Assembly (NCBI GenBank): GCA_963796645.1 | Contig: CAWCMQ010000013.1 | Location: 20,318 to 84,317 of the forward strand | Length of the DNA stretch: 64,000 nt | Source: an uncultured Solirubrobacterales bacterium | Lineage (GTDB): Bacteria; Actinomycetota; Thermoleophilia; Solirubrobacterales; Solirubrobacteraceae | Direction of reading: 5' to 3' | Part shown: positions 57,436 through 61,705 of the stretch, piece after piece | How the letters are laid out: every line of letters starts with the position of its first letter | Numbering within the stretch: the stretch's first letter is position 1 | Notes under the pieces: generated by a model | What the model was told of the DNA's origin: nothing | Database searches by the model: none | The model's input: the letters and a program-made list of their open reading frames with translations, nothing else | Program-made: the position numbers and the translations under genes

Positions 57436-59670
57436 ATGACAGGTGTGCTCTACGGGTTGGCGCGGCTCTGCGCGCGCCGTCGGTTCGTCGTTCTCGCGCT
57501 GTGGGTGGTGGTGACCGTCGCGCTGGTGGCGGTCTCTCAGCGGCTCGGTGACAACACCAACGACAACCTGAAGCTGCCCGGAACCAACAGCCAGCTGGCC
57601 ACCGACACGCTCAGCAAGTCGTTTCCCGATCAGGCGAACGGGACCAGCCCGATCGTGCTGCATGCGGGGAGCGGCAAGCTGACCGACTCCAAGTACGCGA
57701 ACGCGGTCAACCAGGCCGCGGCCGACGTGGCGAAGGCGCCCGACGTGGCAAACGTCGTCAACCCACTGACCCAGCAGGGTGCGAACCAGCTGAGCAAGGA
57801 CAAGGCGACCGGGTACCTGTCGGTCACTCTGTCGGTCAGCCCCGGGGCGCTCTCGGTGAGTGACGTCCAGACGATCATCAACGCAGCGACCAAGCCCGCG
57901 GAGGCAGCTGGGCTTCAGGTCGAGACGGGCGGTCAGCTCGGTCAGAAGGTGTCCAAGCCGGCGACCGAGTCCAGCGAGCTGATCGGGATCCTCGCCGCGA
58001 TGGTGATCCTCACGCTCACGTTCGGGTCGGCGGTGGCGATGGTGCTCCCGATCTTCAACGCGATCCTCGCCCTCGCCTGCACTCTGTCGATCGTCCGGAT
58101 CCTCAGCCACGTGATGACGGTCTCCACGGTGGCGCCGACGCTGGCGACGATGATCGGGCTCGGCGTCGGGATCGACTACGCGCTGTTCATAGTCACGCGA
58201 CACTTCCGCGGCCTCGATGATGGCCTGGAGCTGCGCGAGTCGATCGCGCGGGCGACCGCGACCTCAGGAGGGGCGGTGCTGTTTGCCGGGAGCACGGTGA
58301 CGATCGCCCTGGTGTCGCTGGCGGTGGCCAACATCCCGCTCGTCACGACGATGGGGCTGATGGCCGCGGTCGCGGTCGTCGTTGCGGTGGTCGCGGCGCT
58401 CACCCTGCTTCCGGCGACCCTCGCGATCACGGGCGCTCACATCAATTCGCTCCGGGTGCATGGCGGTGGTAAGCCCCGTGACCCCAAGCAGGGCATGTGG
58501 GCGAAGTGGGCCCACGAGATCGCCAGCCGGCCGGTGCTGTCCGGGCTCGCCGCCCTGATGATCCTGATCCCGCTGGCGATCCCGCTGCTGTCTCTCAGCC
58601 TGGGTCAGAAGGACACCGCTGCGCTCTCCACCTCGACGACGGCGCGCCGGGCATACGACCTGCTTTCGAAGAATTTCGGCGCGGGCGTCAACGGCCCGCT
58701 GATCGTGGCCGTTTCGCTCGGCTCTCCCGCGAGTGGGACCAGCGACCCACGGCTGCAGACGCTCGAGAAGGACGTATCGCAGACCAAGGGAGTGGCCGCG
58801 ATCACGGCGGTTCAGATAGACAAGGCCGGGACAACCGCGTACTTCAACGCGATCGCCACAAAGGGCCCGTCGGACCAGGCCACGTCCGACCTGGTCAACC
58901 AGCTTCGCTCGAGCGTGATCCCCTCGGCTGAGAAGGGGACCGACATGAAGGCCTACGTCGGCGGCACCACGGCTGGCTATATCGACCTGGCCTCGAACAT
59001 CTCGAGCAAGCTGCCGCTGCAGATCGCCGTCGTGATCCTGCTCAGCTTCATGCTGCTCGTGCTCGCGTTCCGGACGGTCGTGGTCCCGGTCCAGGCCGCG
59101 GTGATGAACATCCTCTCGATCGGCGCCGCCTACGGCGTGCTGACCGCGATCTTCCAGCTCGGCTGGGCGCACAGCCTGATCGGACTCAGCGGCTCGGTGC
59201 CGATCGTCTCGTACGTGCCGCTGTTCATGTTCGCGATCTTGTTCGGGCTGTCGATGGACTACGAGGTGTTCCTGGTCAGCCAGATCGAGGAGCACGTGCA
59301 CGCCGGCGAGGACAACAAGAGCTCGGTCGTCTCCGGGCTCGTCACCAGTGCCCGCGTTATCACGGCGGCGGCGATGATCATGGTGTTCGTGTTCGGCAGT
59401 TTCGTCCTCAACGGCGATCCGACGGTCAAGCAATTCGGCATCGGTCTCGCCGTGGCGGTGATCCTCGACGCCACGATCGTGCGATGCCTGCTCGTGCCGG
59501 CGGTGATGGTGATCGTGGGTAAGGCCAACTGGTACATGCCGCGCTGGCTTGACCGGATCGTGCCGCGCATCAGCATCGAGGGCGCCGAGTTCTTCAACGC
59601 CCGTAAGCGGACCCAGAGGACGGCGCCCGAGCCGGAGGCTGAGCTGGCCGCCACCGTCCCGGGGTCGTGA
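57436..59670 (+). CDS. MMPL family (RND) transporter
   Basis: IGLGVGIDYALF, GGAVLFAG.TV, TLLPA, FGLSMDYEVF, ARVITAAA.IM, DATIVRCLLVPA. Confidence 0.95.
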   Translation: MTGVLYGLARLCARRRFVVLALWVVVTVALVAVSQRLGDNTNDNLKLPGTNSQLATDTLSKSFPDQANGTSPIVLHAGSGKLTDSKYANAVNQAAADVAKAPDVANVVNPLTQQGANQLSKDKATGYLSVTLSVSPGALSVSDVQTIINAATKPAEAAGLQVETGGQLGQKVSKPATESSELIGILAAMVILTLTFGSAVAMVLPIFNAILALACTLSIVRILSHVMTVSTVAPTLATMIGLGVGIDYALFIVTRHFRGLDDGLELRESIARATATSGGAVLFAGSTVTIALVSLAVANIPLVTTMGLMAAVAVVVAVVAALTLLPATLAITGAHINSLRVHGGGKPRDPKQGMWAKWAHEIASRPVLSGLAALMILIPLAIPLLSLSLGQKDTAALSTSTTARRAYDLLSKNFGAGVNGPLIVAVSLGSPASGTSDPRLQTLEKDVSQTKGVAAITAVQIDKAGTTAYFNAIATKGPSDQATSDLVNQLRSSVIPSAEKGTDMKAYVGGTTAGYIDLASNISSKLPLQIAVVILLSFMLLVLAFRTVVVPVQAAVMNILSIGAAYGVLTAIFQLGWAHSLIGLSGSVPIVSYVPLFMFAILFGLSMDYEVFLVSQIEEHVHAGEDNKSSVVSGLVTSARVITAAAMIMVFVFGSFVLNGDPTVKQFGIGLAVAVILDATIVRCLLVPAVMVIVGKANWYMPRWLDRIVPRISIEGAEFFNARKRTQRTAPEPEAELAATVPGS

Positions 59671-59683
59671 GGACCCGCAGCGG

Positions 59684-60205
59684 TCACCCGCACAGCTCAG
59701 CCACGATCTGGTCCACCGCCCCGTGCGCCAGCTCGCGCAGCTCCTCATCGGAGCGATCCTGGATTGGATGGGCGACGAGGACGCGGTGAATGTCGGGTTG
59801 GCCGAGCGCCTTGGACTGATGCTCTGCCGCCTGTTCGAAGGCGCTCGAAGCGACCAGCACCGCCGGCTTTCCCATCCCCTCGAAGCTGAGCACGTCGCGC
59901 AGACCGCACGACACGCAGGAGCCTCAGTCGGCGAGCGCCTCGATCACCGCGTCGCAGTTGCGGGCGATCTCGGCACGCACGTCCTGCGGCGCGGGCTTGG
60001 TGAAGGTCGGCTTGGCGGTGCGGACGATCGTGTGGCCACGCCCGGTCAGCAGCCGTTCCAGCTCGTTAAGAAAGACGTCGCCCCGCGGCTTGCGGATGTC
60101 CATCAGCGCGATCGTGGCCGGCTCGCCCGGCTTCAGCCGCTCACCGGCGAGCGGCCGGCCCGACGGGGTTGCCTCGGCCGTCGGATCGAGGATTGTCACC
60201 GCCAC
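59684..60205 (-). CDS. UGSC-family selenoprotein (in-frame TGA 59924-59926 read as Sec), 173 aa
   Basis: ORFs 59924-60205 and 59684-59914 are in the same frame. The junction reads GCC GAC TGA GGC TCC TGC GTG TCG TGC = A-D-U-G-S-C-V-S-C. A SECIS hairpin follows 11 nt after the TGA. Confidence 0.88.
59894..59912 (-). promoter_or_regulatory. Bacterial SECIS element
   Basis: GUCGUGC-GGUCU-GCGCGAC: 7-bp stem (one G-U) starting 11 nt after UGA. Apex resembles E. coli fdhF SECIS (GGUUGCAGGUCUGCACC). Confidence 0.8.
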
Positions 60206-61671
60206 GGTTCAGCGCTCCGGGTCACGGGATCGGATCCTATGTCCCCGGCGACCCAGCCGCCATAGACCATGCTGAACAGTCCAGCGTCGCCACCGGCGTG
60301 AGCGAGCAGGATTCGTCCGGGGGCGGCGAACTTCGGCACCGGCGCGTCCGGATCGGTGACGAACCGTGCCTCGATTCCCTCCTCGATCCCGCCCACCCCG
60401 CGGGCCAGCCCACCCGCTGGGCTCCTGGATTGCTCGAACAGCTCGTCCTGGACCCTCGCGCGATCCCAGCCGTGCTCGCGGAAGATGCGGCCGTGCTCGG
60501 GCCCCACCACGAGCACGGCATCGAAGGCGAAGCGCTGGCGCCGGTGCCCCACCCACTCGAGCGCCGGCCCGAAGCTGGCGCATAGCTGCTCCGGCGTCCG
60601 CGCCAACTGGTCGACGATCAGCCGGGGCGCCTCGCCGGCGAATAGCGTGACGCCGGTCTCCGCCGCGGGGACGCCTCGATCCTCCGCCAATCCCGGCCAG
60701 GGCGAGTCGTGCAGCCGCTCGGCGAAGCACGAGCTGAGCTTGCCCGGCTGCCCGTGGGCGGCGCGGTCCTCCTGCTGCGGCCTGCCACCGCCGACATTGC
60801 GGACCACCAGTCCGAGCGCTCGGCCGATCGTCACGTTGGCCCGGTTGCCCTGACCGAGCGCGTTGCCGGCGCTGTTCATGCCGACCTCGTCGGCGAGCGG
60901 GCCGCTCACGATCACCACCGGCCCCGAGGGGTGCGTCGTCGACACGAGTCCAAGCAGTGCGAAGGCGGGATCGCAGGCGGCCTCGACCGCAGCCAGCACG
61001 ATCGGGAACACCGCTGGCGGGCAGCCCGCCATCACGGCATTGATCGCGACCTTCTCGACCGTGGCCGCCCCGTCGTAGGGCGCGATCAGGCCGACCAGGT
61101 CCTGCGGGTCCCGGCGGGTGGCGCCGAGCATCTCGACCACCCGCTCCGGGGTCGGCGGGACGAGCGGGAGGCCATCCGAGAACCCGCGATCGAACAGCGC
61201 CTCGATCGGGTCCTCGAGCTCGCCGATCTCGATCTCGCGTGAGCGCAGTCGGCCCTCGCGTCGGGCCCGGTTGGCGGCGAGCCGGGCCGCGACGATCGGG
61301 TCTCGGGTGATGCTGGCGCAGCCGGGGCGCCGGTCGGGCAGCCCATCGAGCTCGAGCTCAATGCCCGCCCGACGGGCGAGATCCTGGAGCCGGGCTCGGT
61401 CCAGCCCCTCAACCCGGGCCTGTTCGTGACCCCCGTCGAGGAGCACGACGGCCGGCACGGCGTCCGGGTCGAGGCGGGCCGAGAGCTCGAGATCTGGATC
61501 GAGCTCCGGAGGACTCCCAAGCTCGAGGCGCTGCGCCTGGGCAGCGTTCTCCTCGGCGGAGGACTGCGAGACGATCCGGATCGAGCCGCCGTCGGCAAGC
61601 GCCGAGTCCAGCACCGGGAGCACCTGGTCGCACACCGGGCAGTCGTGTTTGACCAGCACCACGAGCTCCAT
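60196..61671 (-). CDS. Thioredoxin-like CxxC domain + conserved domain partnered with UGSC proteins
   Basis: N-terminal KHDCPVC, RRPGCAS, GFSDGLPLVPPTPERV, TVEKVAINAVMAGC, GQGNRANVTIGRA. 10-nt overlap with the UGSC gene start. Confidence 0.82.
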   Translation of the reverse strand: MELVVLVKHDCPVCDQVLPVLDSALADGGSIRIVSQSSAEENAAQAQRLELGSPPELDPDLELSARLDPDAVPAVVLLDGGHEQARVEGLDRARLQDLARRAGIELELDGLPDRRPGCASITRDPIVAARLAANRARREGRLRSREIEIGELEDPIEALFDRGFSDGLPLVPPTPERVVEMLGATRRDPQDLVGLIAPYDGAATVEKVAINAVMAGCPPAVFPIVLAAVEAACDPAFALLGLVSTTHPSGPVVIVSGPLADEVGMNSAGNALGQGNRANVTIGRALGLVVRNVGGGRPQQEDRAAHGQPGKLSSCFAERLHDSPWPGLAEDRGVPAAETGVTLFAGEAPRLIVDQLARTPEQLCASFGPALEWVGHRRQRFAFDAVLVVGPEHGRIFREHGWDRARVQDELFEQSRSPAGGLARGVGGIEEGIEARFVTDPDAPVPKFAAPGRILLAHAGGDAGLFSMVYGGWVAGDIGSDPVTRSAEPWR

Positions 61672-61705
61672 CGGCCGACCGTAACACGGCTAGGCTCCCC
61701 CACGC

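Follow-up and report, generated by a model that had tools for sequence, protein, structure and literature searches.

The window, a 64,000-nucleotide stretch of a contig from an uncultured Solirubrobacterales bacterium, contains on its minus strand two overlapping genes: a conserved partner gene and, downstream of it, a UGSC-family gene whose 173-codon frame has one sole interruption, the TGA at 59926-59924 (Table 1). ORF listing divides the second gene into a 93 aa ORF (60205..59924, minus) that ends in ...IEALAD followed by TGA, and a 76 aa ORF (59914..59684, minus) in frame with it. Translated with TGA read as selenocysteine (Sec, U), 60205..59684 gives a protein of 173 residues with U94 in the context ...CDAVIEALAD-U-GSCVSCGLRDV... 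and a terminal TGA, and homologs begin with M-A-L/V-T-I-L-D-P-T at the place where the window protein starts. A preliminary description of this DNA had joined the two same-frame ORFs at ...ALAD-TGA-GSCVSC...; listing and translation agree with it, and its coordinates, motif and 173 aa length are correct. It had also expected gene callers to split the gene, which is what has happened in GCA_963803475.1, the nearest relative in public records (82% identical), where the gene is called as products of 93 and 76 aa, each of them matching PF24696.

Table 1. Positions of the genes, codons and RNA features of the UGSC locus within the window
Feature	Coordinates	Strand	Basis
Conserved partner gene, 491 aa; thioredoxin-fold domain (CPVC) plus ~370 aa domain without family	60196..61671	minus	gene neighbourhood; AlphaFold2 model
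Shine-Dalgarno-like GGAG, 9 nt 5' of the UGSC GTG start	60215..60218	minus	read from the sequence; function assumed
UGSC-family selenoprotein gene (predicted), 173 codons plus TGA stop	59684..60205	minus	reading frame; HMM matches
GTG start of the UGSC gene	60205-60203	minus	
Predicted selenocysteine codon 94, in-frame UGA in D-U-G-S-C-V-S-C	59924..59926	minus	aligned column TGA in 91/92 loci
Clade-specific extension of the stem to 11 bp (GCGUGUCGUGC / GCGCGACGUGC)	59890..59916	minus	minimum free energy structure
Conserved SECIS core (predicted): 7 bp stem 59912-59906 / 59900-59894, loop GGUCU 59905-59901	59894..59912	minus	covariation; FdhA geometry
TGA stop of the UGSC gene	59686-59684	minus	

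The read-through protein belongs to the UGSC (seleno)protein family, as the preliminary description had assigned it, scoring above the cut-offs of both curated models: 141.9 bits (cut-off 125) for the NCBIfam equivalog NF041046, 'UGSC family (seleno)protein', and 140.3 bits (cut-off 25) for Pfam PF24696, 'UGSC', in a single match over residues 4-172 of 173 that spans the TGA. At E <= 10 Pfam gave no second family for this protein, PF07355 (GrdB/PrdB) being absent, and a PDB sequence search gave no related solved structure. In the Global Ocean Sampling data the UGSC-containing protein, which has a UxxC motif, ranked among the most abundant selenoprotein families, 255 forms having Sec and 21 having Cys; it was regarded in 2008 as a probable redox protein with a Trx-like fold, and fusions of it to a conserved domain without assignment were reported then (PMC2398784). 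It has also been counted in surveys of bacterial genomes (PMC5029168), and a 2026 review, which enters it under NF041046, describes its function as uncharacterised (PMC13188914).

The window locus is thus an ordinary and already known case, a member of the curated UGSC selenoprotein family in a Sec-using genome, and we call it ordinary because the family was published in 2008 together with its UGA codon and hairpin signal. With the family as described by Zhang and Gladyshev (PMC2398784) the window protein shares its length class, the D-U-G-S-C motif and the Sec column, as well as the excess of Sec forms over Cys forms and a SECIS that lies within the ORF right behind the UGA; nothing essential is different. 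The word 'hidden' in the preliminary description does not fit in the sense of something new, the family and its Sec codon being both curated and published (PMC2398784, PMC13188914). With the family, the Sec codon and the SECIS described since 2008 and covered by curated models, the locus adds little biology; for annotation it is a clean case of a selenoprotein gene cut in two by ordinary gene callers in metagenome-assembled genomes (MAGs).

On the plus strand, a 744 aa ORF for a multi-pass membrane protein (57436-59670) is convergent with the UGSC gene, the two stop codons lying 13 nt apart. By eye it looks like an MMPL/RND-type transporter, and it is not conserved beside UGSC elsewhere.

Conservation of the TGA codon and of the hairpin that follows it

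The window protein was aligned by codon with 92 loci (sources: 20 from relatives and 76 from GTDB species genomes) that cover Actinomycetota including Acidimicrobiia, Pseudomonadota, Chloroflexota, Myxococcota, Spirochaetota and others. At the column of U94 the codon is TGA in 91 of the 92 homologous loci and TGC in the remaining one (L035, ...VAD-C-GTCSS), while the codons that flank the conserved TGA vary synonymously from locus to locus. Judged from these aligned codons, TGA in 91 loci together with TGC in one is the classical Sec/Cys signature, an outcome in keeping with the preliminary description, which had proposed such an alignment as a check. Recurrence of TGA at one column in 91/92 loci excludes a nonsense mutation and makes an assembly error very unlikely. 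Among related genomes, family matches occur in 17 of 41, and nearly all of these matches contain exactly one in-frame TGA. Family matches without a stop are found in genomes G009 and G056.

Within the alignment of the window subfamily no variation is seen at D93, U94, G95, S96, C97 and C100. Other, paralogous subfamilies of the genus have UGSCSAAS or UGSCSASA (peptides CSAASLAD and CSASAVAD) and lack UxxCxxC, so the motif common to the whole family is U-G-S-C; the UxxCxxC given in the preliminary description holds for the window subfamily and not family-wide. Up to five UGSC copies, of at least three subfamilies (UGSCVSC, UGSCTSC and UGSCSAAS/UGSCSASA), are present in single same-genus relatives (G016, G007 and G001; loci L022-L025 and L039-L041). 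Every one of these copies contains an in-frame TGA and a hairpin variant of its own, with loops GGUCU, AGUGU, AGUUU or GGUC, and each lies beside a copy of the partner family.

Numbering the U of the UGA (59926) as 1, positions 15-21 (GUCGUGC) of the window gene pair with positions 27-33 (GCGCGAC) and enclose the loop GGUCU at 22-26. The 7 bp stem begins exactly 11 nt after the UGA, and the base pairing is that of the hairpin with a GGUCU apex which the preliminary description had drawn. A longer, 11 bp version of the stem takes in positions 11-37, and in the alignment its four lower pairs are absent outside the Solirubrobacterales clade. The element appears to resemble the SECIS of E. coli fdhF, the paradigm among formate dehydrogenase genes, in its 11 nt spacer, in the shortness of its upper stem and in having GGUC(U) in the apical loop. 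Compared with the SECIS of bacterial formate dehydrogenases, no bulged U is evident in the UGSC stem and the stem sequences are unrelated. The window clade combines the peptide UGSCVSCGL with the GGUCU loop and the 11 bp stem, whereas most other UGSC members have UGSC(T/A)(S/T)CS(V/L)HD, an AGUGU or AGUUU loop and a 7 bp stem.

The minimum free energy of the hairpin (-24.3 kcal/mol, z = -0.61) is equalled by 49 of 200 shuffled sequences at 69% G+C; folding energy is not significant in such G+C-rich sequence, and we therefore relied on covariation and on comparison with FdhA, the selenoprotein formate dehydrogenase of the same genome. Over 74 distinct sequences the 7 bp stem is 95.8% paired, and 0/500 shuffles reach its covariation score. 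Compensatory double changes occur at three pairs, 18:30 (G-C to C-G or A-U), 21:27 (C-G to U-A) and 15:33 (G-C to A-U), and as a control, sliding the 3' arm by 1-3 columns leaves 4-55% paired in place of 95.8%. The loop has the form NGUNU, with G23, U24 and U26 invariant in the 74 sequences. Part of the conservation of the hairpin is driven by the protein, because the hairpin sits in a stretch that codes for a conserved peptide; several of the compensations fall at synonymous third positions (for example TCG...CGC vs TCC...CGG), and these are not explained by protein conservation. The paralogous subfamilies, which have different peptides, retain at this place a hairpin whose loop contains G-U, and the single Cys form is without that hairpin. 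The apical loop lies 18 nt from the UGA and carries the invariant G23 and U24, the published range for bacteria being 16-37 nt with a conserved loop G-U as the mark of an in-ORF SECIS (PMC10778597 for the range). An Rfam scan of 59600-60300 at E <= 10 returned chance matches only, with no SECIS model.

FdhA served as an internal control. Its gene (TIGR01553, 909 bits summed) lies at C7:429905-432910 on the plus strand and has one in-frame TGA, at C7:430346, in the motif ...ENQARI-U-HSSTVPG.... The SECIS that follows this codon has an 11 nt spacer, a 7 bp stem (GGUCCCC/GGGGACC) and the loop GGUCU, and the UGSC element is identical to it in geometry and loop sequence. Both strands of the 5.09 Mb genome were then scanned with the pattern TGA-N9-13-(7 bp)-GGTCT-(7 bp). 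Three perfect stems were found, of which only two, those of the UGSC gene and FdhA, stand in long open frames, and the signature of this genome (11 nt, 7 bp, GGUCU) singles out exactly its two recognisable selenoprotein genes. Four hairpins with a TGA, a GGUCU loop and one mismatch in the stem also occur in long open frames (C9:107435, C9:39895, C11:486284 and C11:100245); they were rejected as Arg/Pro/Gly-rich off-frame translations.

Predicted structure, the partner gene and a possible function

An AlphaFold2 model of the UGSC protein, built from a 31-sequence alignment, has a pLDDT of 89 and a pTM of 0.84 and consists of five parallel beta/alpha units. Sec94 is placed in the turn that joins strand 86-92 to helix 95-110, and Cys97 one turn into that helix; in the predicted model this is the placement usual for a redox-active UxxC pair, and U94-x-x-C97 could form a selenenylsulfide redox couple. 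Further conserved thiols are Cys84 and, in the window subfamily only, Cys100. Foldseek comparison of the model with the PDB retrieved flavodoxins and other flavodoxin-like folds as weak matches (TM 0.4-0.5) and no thioredoxin among the top 50, so that the Trx-like fold guessed in 2008 is not supported by this flavodoxin-like model. In contrast to the thioredoxin-fold UxxC selenoproteins, the predicted model does not place a thioredoxin fold around the UxxC of UGSC.

The partner gene adjoins UGSC in 94 of about 96 loci across phyla, these loci having been chosen by similarity to the window gene. UGSC has no other conserved neighbour, no further flanking family being present in more than 10 of 76 loci. 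In the window the partner gene, with its TGA stop at 60198-60196, extends 10 nt into the UGSC gene, and with the GGAG 9 nt upstream of the GTG start the UGSC gene is predicted to be translationally coupled to the partner. Searches of the partner protein against Pfam (to E <= 10) and NCBIfam found no family, with a weak Thioredoxin_2 match only, and a PDB sequence search returned nothing useful. Its AlphaFold2 model (pLDDT 92) has at the N-terminus a thioredoxin fold that resembles ResA and StoA: residues 1-108 superpose on these with a TM of about 0.6 (target-normalised) and an rmsd of about 3 A, and the CxxC is at the place expected from the thiol-disulfide oxidoreductases ResA, StoA and CcmG. 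Unlike in those proteins, the predicted thioredoxin domain is fused to a C-terminal domain of about 370 residues which has no family, and for which comparison with PDB structures gave no meaningful match. C11, C14, C118 and C217 of the partner are invariant.

In two Acidimicrobiia MAG loci (L116 and L061) the codon for partner Cys118, elsewhere in the context P-G-C-G-S, is a TGA ('KPG*GSLT'; in L116 at about 2925-2927). A 6 bp hairpin follows it in both, CGAUCC/GGAUCG in one and CGACCC/GGGUUG in the other, with the common loop CGGGC and with stems that differ from each other in pairing positions. The partner is thus occasionally a candidate selenoprotein itself, which marks C118 as a redox-active residue.

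The position of the motif in the predicted structure and the conserved gene neighbourhood indicate that UGSC and its partner probably form one redox unit, in which electrons would pass between the thiols of the partner and the Sec/Cys centre. A more specific version, which we offer tentatively, is that the two proteins are subunits of an uncharacterised selenoenzyme, Cys118 and Sec94/Cys97 forming a catalytic relay fed by the fused thioredoxin domain; were this so, only the chemistry and role of Cys118 and Sec would be new, since the fusion of UGSC was already noted in 2008. Such a pair would recall GrdB and PrdB of glycine/sarcosine/betaine reductase and D-proline reductase (PF07355), which likewise combine a Sec motif of the UxxC type (PMC2398784 gives PrdB as UxxC) with a gene arrangement in which the small Sec subunit stands next to a larger partner subunit. 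The resemblance does not extend to sequence: UGSC has no detectable relationship to GrdB/PrdB, and the partner has no match to the GrdE or PrdA families.

Alternatively, and with respect to function only, UGSC could be a stand-alone thiol/selenol oxidoreductase or antioxidant, Trx-like or SelW-like, with the upstream gene as a mere neighbour. This agrees with the description of 2008, in which UGSC was a probable redox protein of Trx-like fold (PMC2398784), and we regard it as rather unlikely: the partner is adjacent in 94/96 sampled loci across phyla and is the only neighbour conserved there, its gene and that of UGSC share 10 nt in the window, fusions to a domain without assignment are in print (PMC2398784), the invariant Cys118 of the partner is a TGA in the two Acidimicrobiia loci, and the predicted fold of UGSC is not a thioredoxin fold. 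The locus provides a further example of the pair in its thioredoxin-fused form, and what remains of interest is that pair's role.

Upstream, the ATG of the partner (61671, minus) and the start of a divergent 216 aa membrane-protein ORF (61706, plus) are separated by 34 nt (61672-61705). Two promoters would hardly fit into such a gap, and one of the two start codons may therefore be miscalled.

Selenocysteine machinery and the reading of the UGA codon

The preliminary description implied that selA, selB, selC and selD would be present elsewhere in the genome, and the source assembly (a MAG of a soil actinobacterium, 5.09 Mb in 16 contigs, about 69% G+C) has them. On contig 12, selA (478.7 bits) stands adjacent to selB (304.4 bits); selD (385.2 bits) is on contig 1, and all three score above the curated cut-offs. 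A canonical tRNA-Sec lies at C4:611340-611432, with 66.5 bits in Rfam and an ARAGORN call of SeC(tca) with an 8 bp acceptor stem and a long variable arm. A second tRNA-SeC(tca) called by ARAGORN, at C16:46117-46207 on the minus strand, is most likely a false positive: it has no Rfam support, is 81% G+C, and its weak acceptor stem contains numerous G-U pairs and mismatches.

Across a sample of 41 relatives, a UGSC gene with TGA is carried by 15 genomes, every one of them with selA, and by none of the 16 that lack selA (Fisher p = 5e-5). By analogy with the mechanism of E. coli fdhF, SelB-GTP with Sec-tRNA-Sec would bind the apical loop of the hairpin while the UGA is in the ribosomal A site, and selenocysteine would be inserted at the UGA in place of termination.

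We consider it highly probable that 60205..59684 (minus) is one gene for a 173-residue UGSC selenoprotein, in which a SECIS directs the insertion of Sec; that its product works with the partner as a redox unit is probable. That the TGA is instead a true stop, separating a 93 aa protein from a 76 aa protein begun at the GTG at 59914, or marking a pseudogene or an assembly error, would agree with standard ORF calling, which yields exactly these two ORFs in the window and likewise in the public calls of the relative, and with the use of TGA as the ordinary stop of both the UGSC gene and the neighbouring partner. It is nevertheless very improbable, in that one HMM match runs across the TGA, the codon holds the same column in 91/92 loci across phyla where flanking codons vary synonymously, a SECIS follows it, and among the sampled relatives TGA forms occur only in selA-positive genomes; the predicted fold, too, requires the parts on either side of the codon, where strand 86-92 and helix 95-110 lie. 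Readthrough without Sec-tRNA-Sec, whether by near-cognate Trp or Cys insertion or by a genome-wide reassignment of UGA, could appeal to the few homologs in which Cys is functionally tolerated here (L035 and the stop-free form in G056), and is extremely unlikely against complete Sec machinery and a matching SECIS in the genome, reassignment being contradicted by the UGA that ends each of the UGSC, partner and FdhA frames.

Sec use in this lineage had been called poorly documented in the preliminary description. This is right for the literature, where we found almost nothing on Sec use in the Solirubrobacterales lineage, and not for the genomes: of 25 genomes sampled from the genus 22 have selA, so that Sec use is common there at genome level, and the source genome also has a Sec-type FdhA. 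UGSC itself is patchy across the class Thermoleophilia (5/201 genomes), and every close relative of the locus comes from a MAG with the label Solirubrobacterales or Solirubrobacteraceae (Actinomycetota, Thermoleophilia). Among the homologous loci the cultured carriers are Noviherbaspirillum soli SUEMI10 and Noviherbaspirillum sp. 1P10PC, which suit testing better than the uncultured lineage of the window.
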